Source: Chiloscyllium plagiosum (taxonomy: Eukaryota). From it: a stretch of DNA of 64,000 nt. Shown piece after piece: positions 1 to 63,993 of this stretch. The stretch is taken from assembly GCF_004010195.1 (NCBI RefSeq), contig NC_057733.1, positions 36,632,394 to 36,696,393 on the forward strand, read 5' to 3'. Made by a program: the position numbers and the translations under genes. Below the pieces are notes generated by a model. That model did not search any database. It was not told where the DNA came from and worked only from the letters and a program-made list of their open reading frames with translations. The stretch's first letter is position 1; each line of letters starts with the position of its first letter.

Positions 1-345
1 GAGGGGCGTCGGAAATGTGATAGGTGGAAAGAGGTCAAGGTGAGGGTGATAGGTCAGACTGGCGTGGGGGCGGAGAGGTCGGGAAGAAGATTGCAGGTTA
101 GGAAGGAACTATATCAACGAACACATTGACTCGGACCCCATTTACCACCCCCTGACAAAATGAACAGGAAATGACATCACCACAGGAAATGACATCACAA
201 CTCCAGAGAAACCCAAACATATAAATAGAAAGCAGAAATCATCAGCAGTGTTCGTCTGGAGGCTCACTGAAAATGTTACCTAGCATGGTGATGAAATGTC
301 TGAAAATGAACCTTCCAGTTCAGTGAGCAAACCTACATCCATTGC
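1..345. mobile_element. Two fused Penelope-like element (PLE) fragments
   Basis: 1-108 matches the PLE at 18040-18115. 108-345 matches the PLE 3' ends at 13190-13415 and 32490-32722. Confidence 0.75.
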
Positions 346-464
346 TTAGCTCTATCTATCATCAAATCTGTAGGCCTGGCTCTCTTGCATAGAAGCTGAA
401 AGGACATCAAACCTGCAAGAGCTGAAACGTCTGCATTCCAGCCTTCTGAGTCTACTTCTCTGTC

Positions 465-680
465 TTACTTACCTGATCCTGACAACTGGCCAAAAGATCT
501 TCTCCCAAGTGGAGTGACTGCCTCCTGTAACAAAGTGTTCAAGTAATTCTCCACTTTCCTAATGTTCCATAGTATTTGCATTACAGCCTCCAGCTCATTG
601 ACTAAGCCAAAGGTTCTCAAGCTACAGATACTTACTGGAGAACCCCTACATCTGCAATTGCAATACACCGCCTGCTCTAC
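465..680 (-). mobile_element. Degenerate CR1-type LINE ORF1 fragment
   Basis: Translation (C..C...VNELEAVMQILWNIRKVENYL..EAVTP) resembles the CR1 ORF1 N-terminus seen at 54325-54684. Confidence 0.5.
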
Positions 681-789
681 TATCCTTACTGTGTTTTAAT
701 GGATTAATGATGACATTATTTATTGTCCTTTGAATTGTATTTGAGGCTATTCCTTACTATCATCTACTGAACGAATACCATTTTGTAAG

Positions 790-1110
790 GACGGCTGGGT
801 GGCTATGTGGTTAGAACTGTTACCTCACCGCGCCAGGTACCCAGGTTCAATTCCAGCCTTGGGTGACAGTCTGTGTGAAGTTTGCACATTCTCCCTATGT
901 CTGCATGGGTTTCGTCTGCGTGCTCTGGTTTCCTCCCATAGTCCAAAGATGTACAGGTTAGGTGAATTCACCATGCTAAATTGCACATAGTGTTCAAATG
1001 TGTAGGATGAGATAAATGTAGAGTAGTAGGGGAATGGGTCTGGGTGGGTTACTCTTTAGAGGGTCGGTGTGGGCTTGTTGGCTAAATGGCCTGTTTCCAC
1101 ACTGTCAAGA
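790..1110 (+). mobile_element. tRNA-derived V-SINE (HE1-like)
   Basis: A box (tggctatgtggttag), B box (ggttcaattcc), V-domain core gtctgtgtgaagtttgcacattctcc. Multiple copies in the window. Confidence 0.85.
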
Positions 1111-1739
1111 TTCAAAGATTCTACTTAAAAGTACCTAAAAATCGCTTTTTCTTGATTTCTAGTTATTTACATATTACAACACTACAATAAAGTACTTACA
1201 AATGAAGATAACAATTCAGATACTGATGAATTTGGATATCGGAATTTTGTTTTGGTTATGAAGGTGTGAAAATCGTTAGGGTTTTGTAATTTGTGAAAAC
1301 AATTCCACCAAATGAATACCAATGCCCAGTTGTGATTGGCTACCTTAGGCCATGATATGCATGGATCATAATCACACTCATATTTCCATTTACTAAATGG
1401 AACAGGCCAAAGAGGATGATGGAGACATTTCTTTATTTTAAATTTTATAAATGAGAAACATAAGATCAGTAGTCAGCCATTCACACCCTCCAGCCTGTGC
1501 TGTGCTTGTCTGGAGGGGTCATGGCTGAATTGTGACTTGTAGACTTTGCTTACATCCCTTAATACCTTTTTAACAAAATGTATTAATCCCAGACTTAAAA
1601 ATAATCTTTGGCAATTTGAGGAAGAATGATCCAAATATCTACTATCTTTTCTGTGCAGCAATATTTCCAAATCTGCTTCCATCAGCACTGCTTTAAAGTG
1701 CTAATTTGTAGAATAACAAAGTATTAAAAGCATTAAAAC

Positions 1740-1836
1740 TATTATTTGTTTCTGTATCACCACAACATCTGAAAGCAGTTTTGGAAATATGGGAAGTAGG
1801 TATCTGATTTCCTTGATCAGCCAGATCAGCTTCTTC
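1740..1836 (-). pseudogene. Degenerate third copy of the acidic repeat exon of the minus-strand gene
   Basis: Acceptor aaatcag| then EEADLADQGNQIPTS, aligning with ETTEDVAEGRDQTPTS (4839-4949). Flank 1921-1980 is homologous to 5041-5100. No clear donor. Confidence 0.45.
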
Positions 1837-2257
1837 CTGATTTGTGCGAAAATATAGATGATTGTGTTTGAGATGTTGTCCTTTTTGTTCTAAGTGAGAT
1901 CCTCTTTTATGCAACAAATTGTACTTTCATAGCACCTCAAACAAAATAAAAGATCCCAAAAGATTTCACAAGGTGAAAATCACTGGATAGCAACAAATGT
2001 TTGGAATGATGATGTCTCACCATTTGTATACATGGCTTTCAATTCCATTATTTAAATCATTTACAATACAATCCACAGTTTAAGCCCCTCTGCACAGCGT
2101 TTCAGTGAATTTGCCAAAGACAATTCCCTTCTCCCTTCATCGTCTCCTGTCAAACAGCCAAGTTCTTGATCAAGTAAATAATTTGACTTCAATTTCTTGA
2201 TCTTTCAAGGATAACCCACAGTAAAATTAAATATTAAACATACACACATATATTTAC

Positions 2258-2368
2258 CATGCTAGTCTGTACATTTACTGACACATATCCAACAATATTG
2301 AGGAATGAAGGAGGTTCTGAAGGTGATGTTCAATTTCTTTGGTCAGTAATGTCTTCAGTACATTTTTG
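2258..2368 (-). pseudogene. 111-nt repeat exon copy with in-frame TGA (pseudo-exon or poison exon)
   Basis: ctaatcag|CAAAAATGT...AGCATG|gtaaat. Translation QKCTEDITDQRN*TSPSEPPSFLNIVGYVSVNVQTSM has the same length and phase as exon 4839-4949. Confidence 0.6.
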
Positions 2369-2684
2369 CTGATTAGCTTAAAATGTAATCAATTATAAGT
2401 TGCTTTCACAAGAGATGCACTAACAGTTAAAACTTTAATATCAATTTTTTTGATGTATGTGAAACTTTGAGTTGGAAATTTGTATGTGCAGATTTATTGA
2501 AGTTCTCAGTGCCATTAACTGCTACCTGTAACACTCATGATCTATAAGAAATGTGTTCTGCTAACAAATGTTTTGTAGCACTTGTATTCCTTTGTTGTTC
2601 ATCAACCTGAGCCTGAATATTGTCCAGATCTTGCTGCCTGTGGGTGTAGTCTGCTCCATTATCTAATGAGTTGCCAACTACAGT

Positions 2685-3290
2685 CATAGAGTCATGAAGT
2701 CACAGAGATAAACAGCACAGAAACAGACCCTTCAGTCCAACTCGTCCATGCCGACCAAATATCCTAAATTAATTGAGTCCCATTTACCAGCATTTGGCCC
2801 ATATTCCCCTAAGCCTTTCCTATTCATATGCCCATCCAGATTTATTTTAAATATTGTATTTGTACCATCTTTCACCACCTCCTCTGACAGCTCATTCCAA
2901 ACACACATAACCCTCTGCATGGAAAAGTTGCCTCTTAGATCCCTTTTAAATTTTTCCTCCCTCACCTTATACCAATGCCCTCCAGTTTTGGACTCCACTA
3001 CCTATTCACCCTATCCATGCCCATCATGATTTTATAAATCTCAATAAGGGCACCTCTCAGCCTTTGATGGTCCAGGGAAAATAGACCAACCCATTCAGCC
3101 TCTCCCTGTAGCTCTCTCCAACTGTGGCAACATCCATTAAATCTTTTCTGCACCCTTTCAAGTTTCACAATATCTTTCCTATAGCAGGGAGATCAGAATT
3201 GAATGCAGTATTCCACAAGTGGCTTAACCAATATCCTGGACAGCTACAACATGACCTTCCAACTCCTATCCTCAATGCACTAACCAATAC
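2685..3290 (-). mobile_element. CR1/HER1-like LINE 3' fragment
   Basis: ORF 2732-2998 (KTGGHWYKVR..RGNFSMQRV..WNEL) is the typical CR1 ORF2 C-terminus. Short tandem-repeat tail near 2685. Confidence 0.85.
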
Positions 3291-3677
3291 TAAATACATC
3301 AGTGAACAGTGTGATGGAGATAAGGTCAGATGGGGTCCTGCAAGGATGATTTGATGTGAGTCTTATTATCTGGTTCCAATATGAAGAAAAGAACTAAATA
3401 CAAGATGAAGTGAGAGTAATTAACCAAGGCTGCATTTGACTGAATGTAGAATAAAGGAGTCTGGGAAGCCACACCCAAGCAAAACTGTTCCACTTTGGTT
3501 AGTATTCTGGTATATAATTGACAATGTGGGAAATGATCTCAGATCAATACAATCCAGCAATTACTTAGTTGCATCTTGATATTATGTTAAATAAATCAAG
3601 TTGACTTCAGGCTGACATCGGTGATGCTGGGGTCTTAGAGGACACTAAGATGAATCAATCACTTGGCATGTGATTTA

Positions 3678-4015
3678 GAGGGAAGGCGATGGCCTAGTGG
3701 TATTATCAATGGACTATAAATCCAGAATCCCAGGTAATGTTCTGGGCCATAGGTTTGAATTACCACAATAGCAGATGGTGGAAACTGAACCCAATAAAAG
3801 TCTGTAATTAAGACTTTAATGACAACCATGAAATCACTGCCAATTGTCCGAAAAACTCAAGTGGTGTCTTTTAGGGAAGGAAATCCACCATCCTTACTTG
3901 GTCTGGCTGATATGTGACTCCAGACCCACAGCAATGTGGTTGAAACTTAACAGTCGTCTGGGGCAATAAGGGATGGGCATTAAATGTTGGCCTGGCCAGT
4001 GAATGCCCACAACCC
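3678..4015 (+). mobile_element. tRNA-derived SINE with L2-like 3' tail
   Basis: ggcgatggcctagtgg head. 3' end gggcaataagggatgggcattaaatgttgg is shared with L2-like fragments. Second copy at 20660-21000. Confidence 0.7.
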
Positions 4016-4161
4016 AAAAATTAATTTTTTAAAAAGTCCATGATGGTTGCAAACATTTCAGTCTTGTTTGGCAGATGTCCTGGCTCTGCTATTATTGATG
4101 ACACAACATTCATGGAATTTTGTATTCATTTACTTGTACACTACAAACACAAATGGACTTA

Positions 4162-4470
4162 AGGGCGGCACAGTAGCTCAGTGGTTAGCACTGCTGCCTC
4201 ACAGCTCCAGGGACCCAGGTTCGATTCCAGCCTTGGGTGACTGTCTGTGTGGAGTTTGCACATTTTCCCAGTGTCTGCATGGGTTTCTTCCAGGTGCTCC
4301 AGTTTCCTTCCACAGTCCAAAGATGTGCAGGTTAGGTGAACTATTCAGGATGTGTAGGTTAAATGTATTAGTACAAATACGGTAGAGGAATGGGTCTGGG
4401 TGGGTTACTCTTCAGAGGGTTGGTGTGGACTTGTTGGGCCAAAGGGCCCATTTCCATGCTATAGGGATTT
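4162..4470 (+). mobile_element. V-SINE (HE1-like)
   Basis: gggcggcacagtagctcagtggttagcac...ggttcgattcc, V core, tttta tail. Confidence 0.9.
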
Positions 4471-4838
4471 TATTTTATTTTTCTATTCTATACTTGGCAG
4501 GATGTCTTCACTGTTGCTAGGTCAAAATCTGGAACTCCCTCCCTCAAATCACTGTTGGTATATCCACACCTTCTTAACATGATCAATTAGGGAGGGGCAA
4601 GAAGTGCTATAATTGTTTGAAATGCCAACAATCTCATGACCAAATAAATAAAAGAAAATAAAACATATTTGACCAGTTTTCTTTCCACATTGCCTGTGGT
4701 TAAATTCCAAAAAGGAAAGCAAACTTCAACCACTTCGTTCAATGGTATATCTCCTGATATATGAGAAATCAGTATAGAAATTATAACTTAATAAAATAAA
4801 AATTAAACATTGAAAATGATTTGAAGAAAGACAATTAC

Positions 4839-4949
4839 CGTATTTGCTTGTGTATATTCTGGAACATCCCCAAAAATATCTGGTGATACAGGAGGTTCTG
4901 AAGTGGGTGTCTGGTCTCTTCCCTCAGCAACATCTTCAGTAGTTTCTAT
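4839..4949 (-). CDS. Putative coding exon 3 of an unidentified minus-strand gene (IETTEDVAEGRDQTPTSEPPVSPDIFGDVPEYTQANT)
   Basis: Acceptor ttcttgcaaatcag, donor ACG|gtaatt, 111 nt, phase 0-0, open frame. Paralogous exon copies at 2258-2368 and ~1740-1836. Confidence 0.6.
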
Positions 4950-5429
4950 CTGATTTGCAAGAAATACAACAATTATTAGATGCCACACACAATATGTGTC
5001 TTTATTTTAATATTTACCTTATGGCTCTCTTTTTCAAACATGCACTTTGATGCACTCTTAATATAAGAAAACATCCCAAACATGTCACAGAGATGAAAAA
5101 AATAACTAAACAGCTAACAGTAGCAGGGAAAGTGTTTATGATGAGAATTCTAAGCAAGATCCAGGAGGTACATATTAAGGAGAAGGGAGACCTGAAAGAC
5201 ATTAGAAAAGTACAAAGTGGAAAACCATGAGGCAAGTGCCCACATTTTAAATGCCTGGCTTTGTTGACAAGTACTTGTCAATAAATCTGTCAGTAGAACC
5301 TTAGCACATTAGACAGCCAAATGGTTTTGGACTACCACAACATCAAGCAGCCTGAGGAAGGGAATGGCCTGTGTTATCAGGCAACCCAAGCACAGAAATC
5401 AATTTGGTTATGGCTCTGGTTTTAAAATT

Positions 5430-6790
5430 GTACTCCTTGGATGCTTGCTGGGCCAATATTAATTGTCTAATCCATAATTGTCCTCCAGAAGGTGGTGGTG
5501 AGTTTCCTTATCGAATTGCTACAATCCTAGGGTTGTAAAGGTAGTCATAGTGCTCTTAAAAAAAGGTCCTGGATTGTGACCCAGCAAAAAGTGAAGGAAT
5601 GATGACATACTGTAGTTCTAAGTCAGTTAGAGAAGAAAATGCAGTGGTAGACTCCCCATGTATCTGTTGGCCTTGTTCTTTTAGAAGATAGAGGTCATGT
5701 GCTTAGAAGGTACTGTTTAAGCAGCCTTGGTGACCTACACAGTGTATTTTGTGAATGGTACACACTGCTTCCACTGTGCATCAGTGGTGAAATGAGTAAA
5801 TGCTGAAGGTGGTGGTAAGGTGCCAGTCAAGCAAATTGCTTCAGTAAAACAAGGAACTTCAGATGCTGGAGATCAGAAACAAAAACTGAAATTGCCGGTG
5901 AAACTCAGCAGTCTGACAACATCCATGGGAAGAAAGCAGAGTTAATGTTTCAAGTTCAGTGATTCTTCATCAGAATGCTTCATCTTGAATGGTGTCAAGG
6001 TTCTTGAGTGCTGCTGGGAGCTGTACTCATTCAGCAACTTGAAAATATTCCATCATATCCTGATTTATGCCTTATTGATGGTGGACAGATTTTGAGCAGA
6101 CAGGAGGTGACTTGCTTGCTGCAGAATTTCTTTTCTGATCTGATCTTCTAGCCACAATATTTGCATGCCTGATCCAGTTCAGTTTCTGGTAAAAGGTAAT
6201 TACCAAAATGCTAGTGATGGGAGATTCAGTGATGGAAATGTCATAGAATATCAAGGGTGATAGTTTGATTCTCTCTTATTGGTGGATGGACATTGCTGTG
6301 TCTAATGTATTCAACTGATTCTTGAAATTAAGTGAAATATATCATGTTGTCTGAGAACTTGCACGTAACGTTTGGGATCCAACAGGCTGGACTTCCTCAT
6401 CATTGACAATGGAAAAGTTCTTGAAGATTCCTCTTCCAATTAATTGATGAATTGTTTACCACTATTTATGATAGGATGTGACAGAACTGCAGAGCTTGAT
6501 CTCATCCTCTGGTTGTGGGATCACTGAACTCCATCTATGACATTATGCTTTCACTGTTTAGCATGCATGTACTCCTGTGCTGTAGCTTCAATAAGTTGGC
6601 ACCTGATTTTTATGTATACCTTTTGCTGCCCTCGGCATGATTTCATAAACCTTTCATTGAACCAGAATCAACTGCCTCACTTGATGGTGCAGTAGAGTGA
6701 GGAATATCTTGGGCCATGGCATTGTAGGTGGTGACTGAGTACAATTCTCATCTGCTCATGACCCACAGCACCTCATGGCTGTTAAGTGTT
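5430..6790 (-). mobile_element. Decayed L2-like LINE fragments with a small PLE insert (~5850-5975)
   Basis: Similar to 42190-43015 and, inverted, to 21040-21660. No intact ORF. Confidence 0.55.
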
Positions 6791-6980
6791 GAGGTGATAG
6801 TCAGCAAAGCTGCAACTTACCTGGATGAAATATTCTTCAATGACAAATACTAAGTCTCAAATATTTGGAGAAATTTTACAACAAAACTTGTCTTCTGAAG
6901 TGCTTAGTCTATGATACAATGCAAGGCACAACTGCTACCATATTTATAGTAAAAATCAAACAGCCAAAAATTGTATTTAC

Positions 6981-7044
6981 CATCTGTGCACTTTCTGGTC
7001 CATCTTCATCCTCATGCAAGGTTTGAAAGGTCTCAGATGGGGGG
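6981..7044 (-). CDS. Putative coding exon 2 of the minus-strand gene (PPSETFQTLHEDEDGPESAQM)
   Basis: Strong acceptor tttgtttcatttttcatag, donor ATG|gtaaat, 64 nt, phase 2-0. Phases join 10199-10215 and 4839-4949 in frame. Confidence 0.55.
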
Positions 7045-7224
7045 CTATGAAAAATGAAACAAAGGAACTAAATAATCATATTAAACAAATGTTCAATATT
7101 GAATAATGCAAATAATTTACTGGTTTAGAACTACATTTTAAGAGACCAGTTTAAACATAAACTTATATTTCCTATGATGATTCCTCTCAGATCACTCGAG
7201 GTGCTGAAGACCAGGCTTTGGTTC

Positions 7225-9185
7225 ATTGAATTGAATTGAATTGAATTTATTGTCACATATACTGAGGCACAGTGAAAAGCTTTGTCTTGCGAGCAATACA
7301 GACAGATCACATAGTTAAGTGGCATAGATAAGTAAATAATAGATAAACAGCAGCAAAAACAAATACACAGGTACAGGCGAATGTTAAAAGTTTGTGAGTC
7401 CATTCAGTATTCGAGCAACAGTAGGTACCGGCTGGTGCATGTGTTCAGGCTTCTGTACCTTCTCCCCGATGGCAGACTACAGACAGGAGGTGGAAGACCT
7501 AGAAAAATGGTGCATTGAGAACAACCTAGCTCTCAATGTCGGCAAAACCAAGGAACTGATTATTTACTTCTGGCAGGATGTTACTCATGCCCCCCCTACC
7601 CATTAACAGCACAGAGGTGGAATGAGTGGAGTGTGTCAAGCTCTTGGGAGAGGTCATCCACAACAAGCTTTCTGGGACTCTTCATGTGGATGCACTGGTT
7701 GCAAAGACCCAACAATGTCTCTTCTTCCTCAGGCAGCAGAGAAAATTTGGCATGACTTCAAATACCCTTGCCAACTTGTATAGATGCGCCATCAAGAACA
7801 TTCCGTCTGGATGTATCACTATCTGGTTTCACAAGCTTTCATTGCCAGGGTAGGATGGATCTTTGAGAATGCTGGCGGCCTTTCCTTAACAGCGGGCCTG
7901 ATAGATGGATTCTAGATGGGAGGTTGGCCTTTGTGATGTTCACCACTCTCTGTAACTCTCTTCGATCTGAAATGGTACAGTTGTCATACCAGGTAGTGAT
8001 AGATCCAGACAGAATGCTCTCGATAGTGCACCTACCTAGGGTATGCACCACCATGCCAAATTTCCTCAGCTGCCTGAGGAAGAAGAGACGTTGTTGGGTC
8101 TTTGCAACCAGTGCATCCACATAAAGAGTCCAAGAAAGCTTGTTGTGGATGACCACTCCCAACAGCTTGACACTCTCCACTCATTCCACCTCTGTGCTTT
8201 TAATGTGTAGGGGGGGCATGAATAACATCCCACCAAAAGTCAATAATGAGTTCCTTGGTTTTGCTAGCATTGAGAGCTGGGTTGTTCTCAGTGCACCACT
8301 TTTCCAGGTCTTCCATCTCCCGTCTGTAGTCTGTTTCGTCGCCATCTGAGATTCGACCGACTATGGTGGTGTCATCAGCGAACTTGTAAATGGCATTATC
8401 TGGTATTTGGCGACGCAGCCATGGGTATACAATGAGTACAGTATGCACCCCTGGGGGCTCCAGTGTTGAGTGTTAGTGAGGATGAAATATTGCCCCCAAT
8501 CTTCACTGATTGTAGCCTGTGGATCAGGAAACTGAGAATGCAGTTGCAGAGAGAAGGGCTTCGTCCGAGAATACTAACTTTAGTAAAAAGTCTCGAGGGG
8601 ATAGTAGTGTTGAAGGCTGAACTGTAGTCAATGAATAGGATTCTTACATAGCTGTTCTTGGTGTCAAGATGTCCTAGGCAGGCATGAAGGGCAAGTGATG
8701 TGGCATCTGACATGGATCTGTTGGTCCTAAAGGCATATTGGAGTGGGTCAAGAGTAGTGGGGAGGCTAGAGTTGATTAATGTCCTGACCAGCCTTTCAAA
8801 GCATTTCATGACCACCAAAGTTAGAACCACTTTGTCATTGAGATATGCTGCATGAACCTTCTTAGGCACAGGAATGATGTTGGCCCTCTTGAAACAATCA
8901 GGGACAGTGGCCTGCTGCAGGGAGAAGTTGAAGATGTCCAAGAAGACCTCTGCCAGTTGATCTGTGTATGCACTGAGTGCACGGCCTGGTATTCCGTCTG
9001 GTCCCATTGTTTTCCTTGGATTTAAACAAAGGAAAACTGATCTGGCCTCTGATGCAGTGACCATTGGGATAGGTACGTCAGGACTTGTTGGAATATTTGT
9101 TATCTCTCTGCTGAAATTCTGCTCAAAGTGAGCATAGAAGGCGTTGAGACAATCTGGGAGGGATGTGTCATCGTCTGCTATTATT
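7225..9185 (-). mobile_element. Rex1/Babar-like non-LTR retrotransposon, 5'-truncated, with internal inverted duplication
   Basis: RT motifs GPDGIPGRAL, IIPVPKK, QYAFRTNRS, FIDYSSAFNT, KFADDTT. (ATTCA)n tail at 7226-7245. 7470-7830 is an inverted copy of ~7960-8330. Confidence 0.85.
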
Positions 9186-9562
9186 TTCCATTATCCCTGC
9201 CATCCATGTCATTTTGTTCTATTTTCACAGTAATCCCTTTCTTGATTCATCATCTAACCTAGTTTACTCATTCGCTGATGATTCCATTCTATTAATTTCA
9301 TTCCAATGACATACTAACTACCACAATGCTTTCCATTGTCCAACAAGTGAATCTGTATAATGAGGTCTTCATGCATTTTGATAAATATTATTTTTATCAA
9401 TTCTACAAAATCATATTGGGATACATTTTTAATATGTTACCTTATAGGAAAATTGACATTTCGGCCAACCATCTTTTATGGAAGGCTCATATTTTTTATA
9501 ACCTTAAATCAAAATCATGCTATTTCTGTGGTGAATAACCAATTGTCAATAAAGGTGCAGTC

Positions 9563-9890
9563 GTTCAGTGGTTAGCACTGCTGCCTCACGGTGCCAAGGA
9601 CCCGGTTCAATCCCACCTGTCTGGTGTTTGCACATTCTCTCTGTGTCTGTGTGGGTTTCCTCCAGGTACTTTGGTTTCCTCCCACATTCCAAAGATGAGC
9701 AGGTTGGGTGGATTGATCATGCTAAATTGGCCGTGGTATCCACTTGTGTGCAGGCTATGTGGATAAGCCATGGCAAACGCAGCAGGGTCATAGGAAAACG
9801 GTGGGGGGTTATGGCCTGGGAAAGATACTCTTCAGAGGGTCGGTATGGGCTCATGGGGCGAATCGGCTGCTTCCGCACTATCGGAATTCT
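9563..9890 (+). mobile_element. V-SINE (HE1-like)
   Basis: tcagtggttagcactgctgcc, ggttcaatccc and V core. Confidence 0.8.
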
Positions 9891-10198
9891 ACAACCAGGA
9901 AATTTTACAAACGCCTGTGGCAATCCAAATGTATTCATATTTCCATCAAATCTAACTTAGGGATGAACCACAATGTTAACTCTAAATAATTCAATTTCAG
10001 CTGTTCTTTATCTGTTAGCCCCACCATCTCTTCCGACATCAAGTATAAACTTCGCACGTTCTTTCTTGTTCAACATTCCTTTAAGAAGCATGGTTTTCTT
10101 TACTATACAAACATCTACTGAAATATTTCGAAAAACAGACATTCTACAAATGTGAACACTGAAGTATTAAGAATAGATGAGGGAAGTGATGAAGTTAC

Positions 10199-10215
10199 CC
10201 CTCTCCGTCCGCCAT
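10199..10215 (-). CDS. Putative start exon (MADGEG) of the minus-strand gene
   Basis: Strong Kozak aacATGG. ATG GCG GAC GGA GAG GG|gtaact is a phase-2 donor compatible with exon 6981-7044. Confidence 0.5.
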
Positions 10216-10222
10216 GTTCTCT

Positions 10223-10235
10223 GTTGCTAAGAGAC
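10223..10235 (-). promoter_or_regulatory. RFX X-box-like motif (GTCTCTTAGCAAC)
   Basis: Matches the X-box pattern GTYNCY-N(0-3)-RGYAAC, 7 nt 5' of the minus-strand ATG. Confidence 0.55.
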
Positions 10236-10406
10236 GATTACAACAACCCGGCCGCTGTCCCAGTGCGTTGTCGGACTGTACCATGCTTTGGGAGAGGGGG
10301 TGTTTGTGTGTGGAGGTTGGGTTGTCAATGGTGAGAAGGCAAGGAACAGACACCCCTCCCCGTGACCGTGTAGATGTGGACCGGCCCAGTGGGTGAAGCC
10401 GGAGCT

Positions 10407-10416
10407 GTCATGTGAC
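10407..10416. promoter_or_regulatory. CLEAR/M-box element GTCATGTGAC (MiT/TFE site)
   Basis: One base from the CLEAR palindrome GTCACGTGAC, with the M-box core TCATGTGA, in the CpG island upstream of a lysosomal hydrolase gene. Confidence 0.7.
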
Positions 10417-11983
10417 TCGGCTCACCGGCGGTTTGTTCATTTCTGGTTCTCGGGTCAGGAGGTTCTCTGAGGTAGACACACTCGGTGAACTGAGAGCTGG
10501 TTCTGGTCGTTACTTACAAGTTGGTAGAAGATTGGAGTGTGACTGAATCCAACTCCTCGGTGTTTCCAGCCTTTTCCACTTTCTATCGCGGCTTCAAATA
10601 CCCGATGAAGGAGCAGCGCTTCGAAAGTTCGTGGTTTCACGTAAACCTGTTGGTAAATACAGTGGTACCGGGACTGCAGAGAACAACAGGAGGAAGTCTT
10701 TCAGGCCCTCCAGCCTGTTTCACAATTCGGCACCTAAACATCCCTGTCATCACATTTCACCGCAGCTTTTGATCCTGCTTACCAACCAGAGTCTGTCTCA
10801 ACATTTAGTTCCAGAAGAGTAAGCGCTTTCATTTCTTGTTTCATGTTTTAATGTTGAAGGCATTTTGATATATTGCATCTGCCAGAGGTATTTTCTGGCG
10901 TCAACATAAGTTATCCTAAAAAGGCATTCGCTGCAGACAAGGGAAATGATACCTGCGTATTTGAGTTACAAACAGCGATCAGCTTTGTTGCTTTTATGTT
11001 ATCTATGTTAAAATAGCCACAATAGTTTGTTAAATTAAACTTCTGATGTTGGCTTGCATGTCTGGATTCTCTGCTTAATGATGTTACAGTCTGTGACTGT
11101 CAGCCATGAATATGTAAACACTACACTAACTCCATTGTACAGAGACTGCAACTGAGGCGAATTGCGTACCTTTATCCTGGGGTGTTGCATGTTGTCATTT
11201 CATGGAAATCTCTCAAAGGTCTGGAAAATCTGTGCTGTGACACAACATGTCACCTTTTACTTTGATGCTAGGAATCAAATTGCAGATTAGGTTGCAGATA
11301 AGATTTGTACCTAATACATAGTCATAAAGCCATGCAGCATGGAAACATTTCCTTTGGCCCAACTAGTCCATGATGATTGTAATCCCAAACTAAACTAATC
11401 TCACCTGCCTGCTTCTGACCCATTGATAGGATGTGGCATCACTGGCTTGACCAGCATTTATTGCTAATTGCTGAGATGGCACTTGAGAGTAAATCGCATT
11501 GTGGGTCTCAAGTCTCATATAAGCCACACCAGGTAAGGATGATGGATAGGCTTTGAGAAGTCAGTAGATGAGGTGCTTGCTGCAAACTACTAGCTGTAGC
11601 CAGTGTATTTATATGATTAGTACAGTCGAGTTTCTGGTTAATGGTAAATCCCAGGATAGTAAGTGGGGGATTCCATTATACCATTGACTGTCAAGGGGTG
11701 ATGGTCTTGCCTGATATTTGTGTGGCCCAAGTGTTACTTGCCATTTTTCAGCCCAAACCTGTGCATTGACTGGATCATGCTGCATTTGGATATGGACTGC
11801 TTCAATATCTGAGGAGTGATGAATAGTACTGAAATGTGGTGCAATCATCAGTGAACATTCCCACTTCTGACCTCCAAAGGGAAGGTCTTTGAAGCAGCTC
11901 AAACACTTCCCTGAGGAACTCCTACAGAGATGACCTGGAGCTGAGATGACTGACATCCAACACTTATGTTTTTGACAGATCAC

Positions 11984-12204: not shown

Positions 12205-13445
12205 ATTATGGATGCAGGTTTGCTTGCTGAGCTGCAAGGTTCATTTTCAGATGTTTTGTCTCCATACTAGTAACATCAGTGAGCCTCCAAATGAAGCACT
12301 GGTGGTATGGCCCACTTTGTTTTGGTTCTCTGTCGGTGATGTCACTTCCTGTGGTGGTTATTTCCAGTTCTTTTCTTGGGGGTGGTAACTGGGATCCAAG
12401 TCAATGTGTTTGTTGAGAGAGTTCTGGTTGGAGTGCCATGCTTCAAGGAATTCTTGCACGTGTCTCTGGCTTGTCCAAGGATGGATGTGTTCTCCTAGTC
12501 TAATTGTTGTCCTTCCTCATCTGTATGTAAAGATATTAGTGAGAGTGGGTCATGTATCCTGGTGGCTAATTTTCTGCCTGTTTGTCCAATGTAGTGTTTG
12601 TTACAGACCCAATCATCCCAATACCCACAAATGAAGCTGCATTAGAACATTATTTCAACGAGCCACCATACACTGCACCACAGAGGAACTACAAATAGCA
12701 GAGGAAAATTACCTATACGGTATATTCAAAAAGAACGGGTACCCAATGAACGCAGTCTGCTGATTTCTCAGCAGCAAACCCAAACAAGCAGACAAAATGA
12801 ATCCAGAAACTCTAGCTACTCTCCCCTACATCAAAGACCTCTTGGAAATGACTGCCAGACTTCGGACCTCTTGGAATCATGGTGGCCCACAAAGCCACCA
12901 ACACACTAAAACAGCAGCTAATGAACTTGAAAGACCCTACACAGAATGTCACTTACAAAATACCTTGCAAGACCAGTAACTAACACTACATTGGACAAAC
13001 AGGTAGAAAACTAGTCACCAGGATAAATGAACATAAACCAACCACAAAAAGACATGACCCACTCTCTCGAGTATTCTTACATACAGATGAGGAAGGACAC
13101 CACTTTGGCTGGGACAACAAATCCATCCTAGGACAAGCCGAACAGAGACATGCACGAAAATTCCTTGAACCATGGCATTCCAACCAGAACACTCTCAACA
13201 AACACATTGACTTGGATCCCATTTACCACCCCATCAGTAAAAGAATGGGAAATGATGATGTCATATGGGAAATGGCATCATCAACATAAGGAAACATAAA
13301 TATATAAATAGAAAGCGGGCCATACCACCAGTGCTTCATCAGGGGCTCACTGATGATGTTACCTACTATGGTGACAAAACAAACCTTCCTGCTCAGTGAG
13401 CAAACCTACGCCCAGAACCTCAAAGTGAGCTGCAAATCTTCTCAA
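12205..13445. mobile_element. Penelope-like element, two arms in inverted orientation
   Basis: GIY-YIG remnant (YKIPC..HYIGQTGRKL) near 12950-13040. Arm 12205-12605 is the reverse complement of ~12985-13410. Confidence 0.85.
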
Positions 13446-13499
13446 AGGAAATCTCATTATGGAAATAGTTATTGTATGATGGAGCATTTTTGAGAAATT

Positions 13500-15544: not shown

Positions 15545-15830
15545 GCATGGTGGCTCATTGGTTAGCACTGTTGCCTCACAGCACCAAGAACCCAGGTTCA
15601 ATTCCTGCCTAGGGTGACTGTCTGTGTGGAGTTTGCACATTCTCCCCATGTCTGTGTGGTTTTCCTCCCACAGTCCAAAGATATGCAGGTTAGGTGAACT
15701 GGCCATGCTAAATTGCCCATAGTCAGGAGTAAATATTGGGTAGGGGAATGGGTCTGGGTGGGTTACTCCTTGGAGGGTCGGTGTAGACTTGTTGGCCAAA
15801 GGGCCTGTTTCTATACTGTAAGGAATCTAA
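15545..15830 (+). mobile_element. V-SINE (HE1-like)
   Basis: A/B boxes and V core as in the other copies. Confidence 0.85.
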
Positions 15831-17102
15831 TCCATTGCAATTTATTTGAAAGTGCATCCTCCACTGACTAGACCATCAGTCGTATATTCTTGAGGTTTGT
15901 CTAGAAATGCTTTTCTGAAGGATTTGATGTGTGTTGAAATCATCACCAATTTCATAAGCATTTCAGCTTCAGTGAAATGACATTCTGTTCCTTTTTAAGT
16001 CAAGACATATCTATGAATTGGTCAAATATTTCACCAGTTTTTGGTGATATGCAAGAATTTAATCCTGAAATTGAATCAAACTTTATTTTGATCACTTTAT
16101 TTTGATTTTATAATGTGAGAAATTTGTGGGTATTTGTCAATCTCTAAGTAAGGATTGATTCCTTGAATAACTGAGGTCCTGACAAACGTCAATGCATTGC
16201 CAATCCAAATCAAAAAATCTATATTTAGTGTGCTGTTTGTGGTTTTTTTTTTTGCCAAATTTCTTATTTTTGCTGCCCTTTTTAAAGATGACAGGCTTGT
16301 TTATTTTAAGGAAAAGAAAATCATTTTTCCTTGGTAAAAGTAAGGCAAAAAACATTTCAAGTCATTTCAGAAAAAGGAAATAGCAGAATGGGCTAAAGAG
16401 TAACAGCAAGGCCTCTTTAGTCTGGAAACATTTCTCTTGGTATTTTGTTCCTGTACTTTTTTTTCCAGGATTTCTTTCATAGATTTTGTAAGCTGTCGTC
16501 TTTTTGTTTCAAGAGAAATAGAGTATATGTTGTGCTTCAGTACAAGTTTGTAGCATTTAGTTTTGTTTGTAGCACTTTTGTCTTTGTTTTCCCAACCATC
16601 CATGTGTCTGAGTTGACAGCTGAAATTACAACGTAGCACATCTGCCATGCTGCTATTACCTTTTCAGCTTTTATCTGCATATTGCTGCAAACTGCCTCTT
16701 GCCACTAGCTTTAATATTGACTTGTTGCTATGATTAGTGCACTACATACAATATACATCAACAGTCGTGTTGAGTCAGATGTCTGAAGTTTATTAACAAC
16801 GCTAACTACTTAGCCAGGCATAATATCAGAGACTTGCAGTCTGGGTTGAATGATTAAACTGGCTCCTTTATGCAAAAATCAATAACCTAATGTTTTGTCA
16901 TCTTGAATTATATTGCCCTTATCCATTGACTCTGCAAGTCTGTTTAATATTTTCCTGTATTTTGGAAGTACTCTATTATAATATGTTTAGATCAAAGTCT
17001 GCTTTATTGTAGCACAAAACCATTGCAGGTTTTGAACTTTTTTTTTCTTTCTCTCTCATTTAGGTACTAGAACAAAGCTTCAAGATCAACTGTCTTTTTA
17101 TC

Positions 17103-58953
<41,851 letters not shown>

Positions 58954-59409
58954 AGTGAAGCAGAACCTGCACCTATCAAGAAACCTACCAGAACAGAACA
59001 GACAATAATCATAAACCAATGATACTACTGACAATCGTTAAAAGGAATATTTATGGATTGTGTTTCATAGTTGGACAAAAATTACTGCCCGTCATTTGAA
59101 CTTGAATTAAGGAAACAAAGATTTATTGTGCTTGGACATGGTACCAATTGCAACTTGTAACTTAATTTGGGGGGGTTCAAATGGGAGAAAGGAATCTATA
59201 CTTGAGATATCTCCCCCTTTGTGGCATTCATGGCATTAAACAAAGCTTCAAAGGAAATTGAAGAACATTGTACTCTGTCACAGAGGAGCTCGGAAGCATT
59301 GCTGTAGTTTTTGGGACCTCTCTGTTTATGGTACAAACTTTATTCCTTACAGAATTCATAGTCGCAGAAAGGGGGTCCATGGTAGATTGCGGGTAACCAG
59401 GAAATGAAG

Positions 59410-59708
59410 AATAAAGTTATTTTTCTTACTCCTCAAAATGTCATTTGACCTAATCAGTATTTTATATTGTAACAGCATTGTGTTTTCCAAATTGCCCTTT
59501 ACGTGGAAATTGCAAATTTTTAATAGAAAAGCAGAAACTCTCACCTAGCTTCATAAGAGTTGATTAATGCAAGAGACTTGTTTAATTGAGAGATGGTCAG
59601 ATTACAACAATTAAAAATTATGCATTTTATGCAACTGCACTGAAAGTCTTTTTTTTACTATGGAAGTGTTCCAGGAAGACTGAAAGGTTGTGGTCTATTT
59701 TTAATAAA
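59410..59708 (+). terminator. Candidate polyadenylation signals of GAA copy 1
   Basis: AATAAA at 59410-59415 and 59703-59708. Which one is used cannot be told from sequence. Confidence 0.45.
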
Positions 59709-60288
59709 AAAAATTGTAGAATTGACCTTTCAGAGTGCTGCTCCTTCATCAGGTAGCTATGGAGCAGGATCATAAGACAACTTATTGCAAAATTCTGCAG
59801 AATTGTGGGATACTGTGTGTGTGTGTGTGTTTTTTCCTTTGGTACAAACTCTCTGAAATACAACTGAAAAGTAACCGGCTATTTGATTTCCGTCTGATCA
59901 GCCTGCCATGGCATCTCAACCAGTTTGAATGGTTATAGGGTGCTGTTAAAGCTGTTAGTACAGCTGTCATAGGCACTCTTAAATTCCTACATCAACTTTA
60001 CAAAGGTTTGTCAAAGGCAAAAAAATTCATTTGCACTAGCAGAATTTCATTGTCTTCAGCATGGGGAAATCCCAGACAGCCCTTATTCTTTCTTTTGGAG
60101 TTACTTCGCCTTTTCCCATTGCAGTCTAAATATGCCCCTTTGCAAATAATTCTAAGCGTACAGTGATTGAAGATTCACCTTTTTACTTTTATGGGGCTGG
60201 TTGCTCAGCCATTGTACTCCTTTTCCATATTAGCCTCTTCCTTCATTCATCATTCATCCCTTTCGGCATCAGTTTGCAGATAGCTGCA

Positions 60289-60577
60289 CAAAGTTTGTGA
60301 GAAGATTTGTAGCTCGGGTGCTCGTTGTTGTGGTTCTGTTCGTCGAGCTGGGAATTGCAGTCACACTCCAATTTATTTATTCACACTCCACTCCATTTAT
60401 ATATCCCCGCGTTTTTTTTTCCAAATTAAAACCTCAAATGCAGTTGCAGACGTTTCGTCCCCTGTCTAGGTGACGTCCTCAATGCTTGGGAGTCTCCTGT
60501 GGAGCTTCAGGATGTTACCTAGACAGGGGATGAAACGTCTGCAACACAAATTCCCAGCTCGGCGAACAGAACCATAA
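60289..60577. mobile_element. PLE-derived hairpin insertion with templated filler
   Basis: 12-bp target-site duplication cagatagctgca (60277, 60578). Inverted arms. Filler 60360-60443 is partly copied from 60772-60823. Confidence 0.8.
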
Positions 60578-60941
60578 CAGATAGCTGCATCTTTGATAAT
60601 TTCACTCCAATTACACATCTTCAATGCACATAACAACGATTCCTCCCACTTTCCAACAGGTCAATCTCCTCTTCTGGGCTCCGAGAGACTGCAATGCCTA
60701 TTATTGTGTAAAGTATTTTTGGGATAGTTTTTGATTAGTATCTGAATGTAAAACTGGTATTGCGGACAGCACATTTATATATCCCCGCGTTTTTTTTTCC
60801 AAATTCAAACCTCAAATGCAGTTTATTTTTCGAATGAAGTAGTCGTTTTGATGGGTCTGGAAATGTTTTAATGAAAATATTAATTAACGGTTCTGAAGTT
60901 TCCGATTTCGTCAGCAGTGAAGTACCAGTGATATAAAGAAG

Positions 60942-61541
60942 AACAGACATTCTACAAATGTGAACACTGAAGTATTAAGAATAGATGAGGGAAGTGATGA
61001 AGTTACCCCTCTCCGTCCGCCATGTTCTCTGTTGCTAAGAGACGATTACAACAACCCGGCCGCTGTCCCAGTGCGTTGTCGGACTGTACCATGCTTTGGG
61101 AGAGGGGGTGTTTGTGTGTGGAGGTTGGGTTGTCAATGGTGAGAAGGCAAGGAACAGACACCCCTCCCCGTGACCGTGTAGATGTGGACCGGCCCAGTGG
61201 GTGAAGCCGGAGCTGTCATGTGACTCGGCTCACCGGCGGTTTGTTCATTTCTGGTTCTCGGGTCAGGAGGTTCTCTGAGGTAGACACACTCGGTGAACTG
61301 AGAGCTGGTTCTGGTCGTTACTTACAAGTTGGTAGAAGATTGGAGTGTGACTGAATCCAACTCCTCGGTGTTTCCAGCCTTTTCCACTTTCTATCGCGGC
61401 TTCAAATACCCGATGAAGGAGCAGCGCTTCGAAAGTTCGTGGTTTCACGTAAACCTGTTGGTAAATACAGTGGTACCGGGACTGCAGAGAACAACAGGAG
61501 GAAGTCTTTCAGGCCCTCCAGCCTGTTTCACAATTCGGCAC
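60942..61541. promoter_or_regulatory. Putative bidirectional promoter block, copy B (X-box 61031-61043, CLEAR/M-box 61215-61224, antisense ATG exon 61007-61023)
   Basis: Matches 10134-10733 and lies 1.8 kb upstream of the second GAA first coding exon. Confidence 0.8.
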
Positions 61542-63375
61542 ACCTCACACAGCCTTTCGCTACTATTTTTAATCCTATTTACCAACAACTACCTCAACAT
61601 TTAGTGTTAGCGTAAGCATTTTAATTTGTTGTTTCACGTTGTTAGATTTTAATTTCAATGACATTTACAGTACTGGAACTGTCAGCGTTAAAAGGTGCAT
61701 TCCAGTATCATTAGCAGAAGTTTGTCGTTGACATTCTGTATAAACGAGGCAGTGACATTGGGCAACATACTTGCTGACTTTGCAATTCTTTTCAGTATAT
61801 GTCTTTTAAAGTTGATTTTGTAACGTCGTGCTGGGGCATTGGTGGTGATAGATCACCAAATGGGCATTTTATTGTGCGTGAACCTTGCGTAGACTTTAAG
61901 AATGTTATTTGACTTGATTTTGGAATAGAAAGTTCTAGTAGGCTACACTGCCTAGAGCGAACACAATGTAAGGATGATATAGATAAATACAAATGTACTA
62001 AAACAATATTTCAAACTAATGCGACATAAGTCTAAGTTTTTGTTTCCTTCGTCAGAATGGCGTAGCCTAATTTTCAATATGACTGATAAGTGGCTAATGC
62101 AGTAGTTTTATGTATTGCAAGATCCCACACAAACACAAAATTGGCAAATAATGGATTAAGCTTTTCCCTTATGGTGTTTATTGGCAAATAAACATTGATA
62201 ACACTAGGGAATCTACTTCATTAGCAGTATGTTATCTTTAACATGGTATTTAAGCTAGCAGAGGTTACCTCTAATTTAGAATCTAAACAAAATATACCAT
62301 GTAAAACAATGTAGCATTTCTTCAATTTTTCACTGAAGTGTCAACCTGCATTATATGCTCAAGTCAGGGCTAAACTGAAGCCAGATCTTTTAATCCAGAA
62401 GTGAGTATGCAACAAAGCTGACGTTAATGAAACTGATTTAGGAAGTGGTGATTAGATGTCCAAAGTAAAGTTGAGTTGTGGAATCCAGAAACTTTAATAC
62501 AAAGTCAGTGATCTGTTCAAAATGATGTAGTATATAGTTAGTTATCTGAAGGATGTTGACCACACTTGCCTGAAATCCACATCTCAGAAGGAGACCATTT
62601 GGCTTATCTGTGAACTCTAGCTCTCACTCATTTCACTTTTTTAGGCTACCCCATTTCTGTTTCTCTTCATGTAGATAGTAAACTTACTCTTAATCCATTT
62701 TGGGTGATAGTGAGATATGCATTCTACTGTTTTTTGTATTTTTCTGAAATTTATTTGGTTAGTGGTTATCTTCTGTTTATGTCCTATTATTTTGGATAGG
62801 CCCACAAGTAATAGTGATTTTTCACATCCTTCAATTTGAAGATTCTGCAGGGAAACAAGCTGCAGCTTGCATATTTCCTGATCACTGCATCATCTTAATT
62901 TTGGTAATATCCTTGGAAATCTTTTGTACAAACTCTCCTGTACTTTAATAATCATTTTAATACTCGGGACCACTATGTTCAGGTCTGTTCTCCAAAGTGT
63001 AATTTCACTTAAGTTCTACACAAAGTTAACAATACTCCATAAGTTTCATATTTTGTTTTCCTAGGAATGATTTCTAAAATTTGGGTTTAATAACTTGTAT
63101 TGCTCTTTGTTTCAGCACCCCTAGACATATTTTCCCTCTATTTAATTTACTTTTAGATTTGAGCTCCCAAAGAAATCATGACCTACCAAAATCATCAACT
63201 TCATTCTGTGAACATTCCATTCCATTGTGAAGTATCTTGTTTATCAGCATTAAGTTGTAGTATGAGATGACATTGTTCCCTGTTTTGAACACTAACTTTT
63301 TATTTTAAACATTTCTACTCTGTCCTTTAGGTGGACAAAGTGAACCACAACTTCAAGATCAACTGCCTCGTCATC

Positions 63376-63993
63376 ATGTTCCTACAACATTACAAAGCAG
63401 AAAAATGTGCTCTTGCTCCAGGAAATGAAGGAAAGGTGCTAGCAGGATTTCCAACTGTCACAAAGCCAAGAATGCCTGCAACTAATGTTATTAAAAATGG
63501 AGCAATCCTTCTTAGTGTCATTTTAGTTGTTGTAATTACATACCATAGTTATTTTACTCTCGAGTCTCAAGTGATTCCTCGGCATGTTAAAATGAGGATG
63601 TTTAAACTAGATTTATTGTGGCAATACCCACATGATAAAAACAGAACAGAGACTTCAGAAATACTGAACCAGCTGCCATTCAATTACAGTCATCACAGTG
63701 ACTCCCAATGTGATATTGATCCAAATAGTAGATTTGATTGTGCTTTCAATGAAGCGATTGACATGACCAAATGTCAGAGTCGTGGCTGCTGTTGGAATTC
63801 AGCAGCCAAAGCTGGTTCTCCACCCTGTTTCTTGCCATCAAACTATCCTTCTTACCACATGGATTACCTTTCCCCAACAAGTACTGGCTACACAGCCTCA
63901 CTGAGCCGCAGTGAGATGACACTGTTCCCAAATGACATAATGACACTTCAGTTGAATGTAATGTATGAGACATCTGGCAGACTTCATTTTACT
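63376..63993 (+). CDS. GAA: Tandem GAA paralogue (copy 2), first coding exon (exon starts 63331); gene continues beyond the window
   Basis: Open 206-codon frame MFLQHYKAEK...CDIDPNSRFDCAF..CQSRGCCW..CFLPSNYPSY...GRLHFT|gtaagt. Collinear with 17103-17720 without indels. Not listed in the ORF track because no stop is reached. Confidence 0.93.

Follow-up and report, generated by a model that had tools for sequence, protein, structure and literature searches.

Why should two long-diverged copies of a gene share 600 bases in which not one has changed? The question is raised by a stretch of contig NC_057733.1 from the bamboo shark Chiloscyllium plagiosum (64,000 nucleotides from one genome, which we refer to as the window; all coordinates are positions within it), which holds two tandem copies of GAA. 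The segment at 10134-10733 matches the one at 60942-61541 in all 600 bases, and beyond these coordinates the exact match breaks off on either side, just as the initial annotation had claimed. The agreement of four ORF translations, which the annotation also cited, would be a trivial consequence of this identity. The second segment lies 50,808 bases downstream of the first, ahead of GAA copy 2 and about 2 kb past the GAA copy 1 stop codon. As far as the given sequence goes, the block is real and well defined. In-register interlocus gene conversion explains it best and is probably its cause.

Identity far beyond the divergence of the two genes

The first coding exons of the two copies (17103-17720 and 63376-63993) encode 119 identical amino acids out of 206, which is the count given in the initial annotation. 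The proportion of synonymous differences (pS) is 0.40, and the synonymous and nonsynonymous divergences (dS and dN) are 0.57 and 0.27. At the 26% divergence of this exon, 600 bases in a row would all be identical with a computed probability of about 3e-79. The runner-up among exact repeats of at least 20 bases in the window is 90 bases long. With 0 differences in 600 bases, the 95% upper bound on the divergence of the block is 0.5%, or 0.9% of the dS of exon 2. The diversity of the epaulette shark is 0.002 (PMC10587355), and two alleles at this diversity are computed to be identical over 600 bases 30% of the time, so the two copies of the block are as alike as alleles.

The block contains 27 CpGs, with a GC content of 51.5% and a ratio of observed to expected CpG (O/E) of 0.69, versus an O/E of 0.26 for the window. 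Gardiner-Garden and Frommer define a CpG island as at least 200 bases with GC above 50% and O/E above 0.6; the rule of Takai and Jones asks for GC of at least 55%. The block (600 bases, 51.5%, 0.69) passes the former thresholds but fails the stricter GC rule, as its best 500-base windows reach 53-54%. When we scanned the window for CpG islands, 21 of the 21 qualifying 500-base windows overlapped the two blocks. The description of the block as a CpG-island promoter thus holds under the looser thresholds, and no other sequence in the window qualifies, but the island is a weak one. We considered and rejected two other causes of the identity. Structured RNA was ruled out because the window has no Rfam match at the gathering score, and a mobile element was rejected because, within the window, the block matches only its twin and two pieces of 32-37 bases.

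A predicted head-to-head promoter of CCDC40 and GAA

The block had been described as a promoter of GAA, which is incomplete: it appears to be a bidirectional promoter that also holds a coding exon of another gene. A gene on the minus strand starts inside copy 1 of the block and runs leftwards. Its exon at 4839-4949 matched two of seven candidate proteins, namely CCDC40 from Hemiscyllium (P0124; 34 of 36 amino acids) and a hypothetical protein from Chiloscyllium punctatum with the same domain. The N-terminus of P0124, MADGE, maps to 10215-10201, and identically to 61023-61009 in copy 2. The predicted coding part of CCDC40 exon 1 (10199-10215, minus strand) begins with the start codon, comprises five codons and two bases, and ends at a phase-2 GT donor at 10198. 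This phase agrees with the next CCDC40 exon, exon 2 at 7044-6981 (minus strand); the exon at 4839-4949 is exon 3. Because the MADGE start and the phase-2 donor fit CCDC40 exon 1, we take copy 1 of the block to be the promoter that the cilia gene CCDC40, on the minus strand, shares with GAA copy 1, on the plus strand, a role that we assign from position, CpG content, and motifs. The CCDC40 start codon at 10215 and the likely donor of GAA exon 1 at 10819 are close enough for a bidirectional layout, in which two head-to-head genes have their 5' ends within ~1 kb.

In copy 2, the same bases form an orphan exon. CCDC40 exon 1 and its donor recur at 61007-61023 (minus strand), antisense toward the 3' end of GAA copy 1, and the first 65 bases of CCDC40 intron 1 (10134-10198, 34% GC) are found unchanged at 60942-61006. 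Neither tblastn nor a blastn comparison of 58954-60941 to 1-10133 found CCDC40 exon 2 or 3 downstream of the orphan exon. Past the orphan exon, the minus strand of 58954-61006 has several acceptor-like sites and eight polyadenylation-like hexamers, but AT-rich DNA often contains such sites by chance. A short antisense transcript from the orphan exon toward the 3' end of GAA copy 1 is possible.

Just upstream of the CCDC40 start codon, the block contains a motif that resembles the X-box of RFX proteins (10223-10235, plus strand; 61031-61043 in copy 2). The pattern has only these two matches in the window, but it was loosened after the site had been seen, and the strict consensus does not match there. 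Mouse Ccdc40 is among the genes that are regulated by RFX2 in spermiogenesis (PMC4745085). Another motif, at 10407-10416 (61215-61224 in copy 2), contains TCATGTG and differs by one mismatch from GTCACGTGAC, the CLEAR/M-box consensus as given in PMC9363479. Within the window, this 10-base pattern is confined to the two blocks. Residue 6 of CCDC40 is Ser in Hemiscyllium and is predicted to be Gly from both copies in the window, so the block does not appear to be invariant between genera (this is one site, and it assumes the same exon structure).

Both edges of the block lie inside an older duplication

To the right of the block, decayed homology continues at 10734-10890 (plus strand), with its counterpart at 61542-61690. 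The score of the alignment between 10767-10890 and 61567-61690 was reached by 0 of 200 shuffles. Among ungapped columns, 47 of 70 are identical before, and 52 of 71 after, a GTAAGC donor that the two copies share (10819 and 61612), which bears out the earlier claim of decayed homology around this motif. Because of the shared GTAAGC and the decayed homology, this flank is likely the 3' end of a non-coding GAA exon 1, followed by its donor and the start of intron 1, with the proviso that donors within the block score equally well.

On the left, homology had been claimed to stop abruptly. The flank at the block edge itself cannot be aligned, but collinear decayed homology resumes at 9293-9525 (plus strand), inside CCDC40 intron 1. 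This segment is identical to 60597-60828 at 144 of 247 positions, with a score that none of 300 shuffles and none of 332 control tiles from the window reached. Another segment farther left (9210-9253 versus 60210-60253; 31 of 44 identical) is borderline (2 of 300 shuffles). As homology returns farther out, we rejected the left edge of the block as the breakpoint of the duplication. Because decayed collinear homology is present on the left and on the right, both edges of the block lie inside the older duplication. Identity in the flanks is 58-73%, and they are about as diverged as synonymous sites.

Insertions interrupt the left flank in both copies. In copy 1, a dispersed repeat that we take to be related to short interspersed elements lies at 9533-9905 (plus strand), between the aligned left segment and the block, and it matches 773-1113, 4171-4472, 15550-15843, 22697-22977, and 46685-46978. 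In copy 2, the insertion is at 60277-60589, just past the far end of the aligned segment, with 12-base flanking direct repeats and inverted arms. It contains a 52-base piece that matches 60772-60823 (51 of 52), ~380 bases downstream. The insertion presumably has a weak relationship to Penelope-like repeats. It appears to be young and to have involved local template switching, beside the copy-2 promoter. The flanks that are copy 2's own hold 5 CpGs in 113 bases and 4 in 149 (small numbers), as would be expected of an old unmethylated promoter, and we count this in favor of conversion.

Two predicted GAA proteins that differ near the active site

GAA copy 1 (17064-58953, plus strand) runs from exon 2, with the start codon at 17103, to the stop codon. 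It has 19 coding exons, all of its introns are GT-AG, and its open frame encodes 960 amino acids, of which 940 match Hemiscyllium ocellatum P0001 and 776 match C. plagiosum P0006. Of copy 2, exon 2 (63331-63993, plus strand; start codon at 63376) lies in the window and the remaining gene runs past its end. Because this exon matches P0006 at 99.5% over 207 amino acids (the last residue is intronic), we let P0006 stand in for copy 2 beyond the window, and the identity of copy 2 as GAA beyond exon 2 rests on P0006 through this match.

Both P0001 and P0006 contain trefoil and GH31 domains, and the catalytic motifs WIDMNE and HW[TS]GD are present in 13 of 13 aligned proteins, including both copies. 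From these domains, the catalytic aspartates, and their grouping with vertebrate GAA, we identify both copies as GAA, the lysosomal alpha-glucosidase of family GH31. Human GAA (PDB 5nn3 and 9gsv; PMC5653652) has the same domains and catalytic motifs as both shark copies. The bamboo shark differs in having two tandem copies and, in P0006, a tyrosine at the position of human W376, which makes hydrophobic contacts in subsite -1 (PMC5653652).

The alignment equates W376 with Tyr400 of P0006 and with a tryptophan in copy 1; tyrosine is also found there in maltase-glucoamylase. We tallied this position in 56 named single-domain proteins that match the motif pattern (after dropping unnamed rows and one fragment). 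It is Trp in 48 of them, Phe in six (three type-B proteins from rays and three caecilians), and Tyr in two (P0006 and a newt). In the second copies from the bamboo shark (P0006, residues 400 and 429) and from the rays (P0010, P0011, and P0012), Tyr or Phe replaces the Trp, and Ile or Val follows the neighboring Asp. This pattern reflects either shared ancestry or convergence. In GH31 enzymes, the position equivalent to W376 shifts the preference between alpha-1,4 and alpha-1,6 linkages. The sequences suggest two enzymes that diverged in function under a shared core promoter.

Age of the duplication and of the proposed last homogenization

From 122 proteins, we chose 18 and 13 rows for trees. 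The rows are 11 named GAAs from sharks and rays (fragment P0003 was left out), Callorhinchus, outgroups, and the copy from the window; the topology tests with 13 rows additionally leave out Hemiscyllium and four outgroups. In the 18-row tree, the two bamboo-shark copies fall, with no resolved order, inside a clade with Carcharodon and Scyliorhinus (support 96/98). Because the path from copy 1 to P0006 (0.28) exceeds the path to Carcharodon (0.21), and the path to Hemiscyllium is just 0.02, we place the duplication before the split of Chiloscyllium and Hemiscyllium. On the tree, it may be as old as the shark orders.

Shark orders are roughly 150-200 million years old. On that scale, and if the block is neutral, the last homogenization would have occurred less than ~2 million years ago. 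We rejected an absolute date from a pedigree mutation rate: at 7e-10 per base per generation (PMC10587355), the bound would be 3.6 million generations (1.8-17.8). We use only the relative bound because the same rate turns the dS of 0.57 into ~400 million generations.

The rays have two GAA clades of their own (100/100 each), and two GAA copies of Leucoraja are reported from contigs of equal length. In the whole-protein tree, shark copies group with sharks and ray copies with rays, and a clade of copy 2 with ray type B is marginally rejected by the approximately unbiased test (p-AU = 0.044). Sites informative for the quartet group by lineage in 26 cases, by paralogue in 10, and in the crossed arrangement in four. 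On these data, a single duplication before the split of sharks and rays is possible. In one of five protein regions (amino acids 207-342), the bamboo-shark copies group together at 91/94 and the tested alternatives are rejected (p-AU = 0.02, 0.02, and 0.002), which is compatible with older conversion in the exons.

Probable gene conversion and its alternatives

We propose that an old tandem duplication in a shark lineage took in GAA and the bidirectional promoter together with exon 1 of CCDC40 and ~0.9 kb or more of its first intron, since decayed collinear homology is found on both sides of the block. The copies then diverged to the ~60-70% that is seen at unconstrained sites. Later, a break in one promoter would have been repaired off the other, 50.8 kb away, without a crossover, so that 600 bases were homogenized in register; a promoter that lacks methylation and is used in the germ line would be a plausible site for such a break. 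Under neutrality, the last event would be recent, as it is computed to fall within ~0.9% of the synonymous divergence of exon 2. Because the surviving haplotype must serve CCDC40 at copy 1, we favor a net transfer of sequence from copy 1 to copy 2.

The block looks like a conversion tract in several respects. It is identical at 600 of 600 bases as compared to 58-73% in the flanks and a pS of 0.40, and it sits in register within an older homologous segment. Also, its identity spans the orphan CCDC40 exon and 65 bases of intron, which presumably have no function in copy 2; at 66% identity, the chance that 65 intron bases would all be identical is 0.66^65 = 2e-12. The insertions in the left flank also support conversion, as they are the type of lesion that is said to end it: conversion requires highly similar sequence and is stopped by insertions and large indels (PMC3924837).

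Several observations weigh against this explanation. Counting outward from the block, the matches per 20 columns are 6, 12, 13, 14, 14, 10, 15, and 12 on the right and 7-12 on the left, so identity drops at both edges without an intermediate shoulder, whereas a core that was converted recurrently and eroded over a long time should be flanked by a gradient. In exon 2, dS drops to 0.30 in codons 151-206, but we rejected conversion in this 3' part because no patch within the exon is significant (same-amino-acid codons, 7 of 45 versus 19 of 67, Fisher p = 0.17; longest-run p = 0.26). The mosaic in the protein is weak, too: none of the five regions rejects a clade of copy 1 with copy 2 (p-AU of 0.21-0.33 where that clade is not in the tree), a runs test gives p = 0.11, and the regions were picked after inspection. 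Thus, neither the edges nor exon 2 support the recurrent conversion that the initial annotation had raised. Homologous recombination across 35% divergence is difficult. Because a single jump of that kind would be hard, we lean slightly toward earlier rounds of conversion over a single event; these would have preserved an alignable core as the flanks became cut off by indels and inserted repeats. The missing shoulder favors one long tract for the last event.

Assembly effects also count against conversion. Similar copies may have been merged into one consensus or, less likely, the promoter of copy 2 may have been replaced in silico. The length is exactly 600 bases with step-like edges, and the scaffold is gapped, with runs of 191 and 475 N in the window. 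Furthermore, at 50710-50935, within a GAA intron, a 112-base unit is present in 2.0 copies at 98% identity; this near-perfect doublet may be a contig-join overlap, which it seems to resemble, or a recent tandem duplication. However, the nearest gap is ~3.1 kb from the copy-1 block and there is none near copy 2. Assemblers cross between copies only through long exact stretches at both ends, and the left end of the block is AT-rich intron, in which 31 identical bases would arise by chance at 66% identity with a probability of ~1e-6. Nor would a paste at a random position put both flanks in register. Overall, we consider an artefact unlikely, though it is the main rival to conversion and should be kept in mind. 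Because long identities are needed at both ends, even a collapse would mean that the copies are in fact nearly identical and were converted slightly earlier.

A sharp in-register chimera without a shoulder is also what unequal crossing-over would yield, if a transient array of three copies was resolved so as to leave copy 2 behind the promoter segment of copy 1. Direct repeats 50.8 kb apart are a substrate for this, and the tree of elasmobranch GAAs is unstable (contrast the two ray clades with the shark copies, as described above). But a single crossover would carry copy-1 sequence indefinitely to one side, which is not seen, so that two exchanges just 600 bases apart would be needed, both ending in sequence that is ~65% identical or cannot be aligned. 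We judge this to be very unlikely. Even more improbable is that strong purifying selection has held both promoters unchanged since the duplication. The block does carry plausible regulatory motifs and a coding exon, and the mutation rate of sharks is low (7e-10 per base per generation; PMC10587355). However, copy 2 has no evident use for the orphan exon and the 65 intron bases, and yet these are identical, in contrast to the neighboring donor region, which has diverged. In addition, CCDC40 residue 6 differs from Hemiscyllium. These are our reasons for setting constraint aside. Also, old mammalian paralogues retain little similarity between their promoters (PMC10100218). Overall, the proposal of an old tandem duplication followed by recent homogenization of the promoter stands as the best reading, with the orphan exon and intron countering constraint, but collapse in the assembly is also in play.

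If conversion occurred as we propose, then the two enzymes, which differ near the active site, would likely share a core promoter and its CLEAR-like input. A crossover within the 600-base direct repeat would likely delete or duplicate GAA copy 1 cleanly, and the orphan exon may give rise to antisense transcripts that reach the 3' end of this copy. The initial annotation expected the regulation of the two genes to be kept identical. This probably goes too far, as the likely end of exon 1, its donor, intron 1, and the distal flanks all differ. A broader scenario strikes us as doubtful: across sharks, and perhaps rays, promoter-targeted breaks would have re-synchronized the shared bidirectional promoter of tandem GAA paralogues for over 100 million years while selection kept the catalytic exons apart (Trp versus Tyr or Phe at the position of W376), giving two co-regulated lysosomal glucosidases of different linkage preference and a persistent orphan CCDC40 exon from which antisense transcription runs into the upstream copy.

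If the assembly is right, then this is an unusually clean reset of regulatory DNA between paralogues whose promoters should have lost all similarity, and the orphan exon is a built-in control that tells conversion from constraint. The locus would be a natural place to ask if sharks place recombination at promoter-like sequence. It would also predict a copy-number variant in which GAA copy 1 is removed cleanly, with CCDC40 and its promoter intact. Dating based on the promoter, or mapping of short reads, would mislead at this locus.

Comparison to known systems

Events of this kind are already known from HBD/HBB and SIGLEC11/16, so the mechanism is not new. What is unusual here is the step from 100% to ~65% identity, the captured CCDC40 exon, and the change from Trp to Tyr at an active-site position in the protein that we assign to copy 2. 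Like GAA, HBD and HBB are old tandem paralogues in which a promoter was acquired by interlocus conversion (in galago, cat, and microbat, with further tracts in primates), and this occurred independently in several lineages (PMC4390247). The primate tracts described there take in 71-149 bases of 5' flank and extend into coding exons, whereas the GAA tract includes no GAA coding sequence. It stops before the likely donor of exon 1, links copies 50.8 kb apart, and brings along a coding exon from a third gene, unlike the HBD/HBB tracts of that account (PMC4390247).

In the A/A' region of SIGLEC11 and SIGLEC16, as at GAA, the 5' region including upstream sequence has been homogenized, and according to the published account no motif marks the ends of the tract (PMC5701461). 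Identity there is 97-99% versus 88-93%, as compared to 100% versus 58-73% for the GAA block. The SIGLEC tract is ~2 kb and includes coding exons, and its recurrence is supported by trees from five primates (PMC5701461), whereas we have one genome. The review by Fawcett and Innan describes, as we see here, flanks broken by insertions or indels and an identical tract inside an older duplication (PMC3924837). Its diagnostic is substitutions shared by paralogues across species, for which the GAA block offers one amino-acid hint.

Vertebrates with partial PRDM9 can behave like knock-outs, with recombination directed to promoters (PMC5519329); the GAA block shares with such sites that it is the sole CpG-island-like sequence in its window. 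That study concerns allelic hotspots, and the link from those to ectopic conversion at GAA is hypothetical, as is the hotspot mechanism that the initial annotation had suggested. It describes PRDM9 of the elephant shark as partial, and as lacking rapid zinc-finger evolution or detected testis expression, while the whale shark is tentatively scored as retaining the SSXRD domain (PMC5519329). The literature on PRDM9 in cartilaginous fish is equivocal. We found no description of this locus among the papers listed by full-text searches; most subscription journals and supplements, where shark genome papers may list the duplication, were outside the scope of this search.

Other features of the window

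Inside the CCDC40 introns, there are exon-like pieces with donors at 2258-2380 and 6821-6900 (minus strand). The former is similar to exon 3 (4839-4949), but a stop codon closes its frame 24 codons ahead of the donor. The acidic segments of Hemiscyllium CCDC40 are repeated internally, which suggests that the N-terminus of this protein was shaped by the duplication and decay of exons. The C. punctatum prediction P0125 begins with a peptide from 9441-9472 (minus strand; 10 of 10 amino acids) instead of the exon in the block. This is probably a choice made in gene prediction and is possibly an alternative first exon. We rejected a candidate CCDC40 exon ending at 9441 because its phase does not match that of exon 1.

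Decayed repeats at 12205-13446, 31466-32727, and 35701-35997 are presumably Penelope-like elements; several are in inverted arrangement, and a GIY-YIG-like frame is found at 12852-13289. Finally, CCDC40 (1-10215) and GAA (17064 onward) are head to head in this window. We take the human genes to be adjacent on the same strand, and if so, the difference in orientation would imply a local inversion in one of the two lineages.

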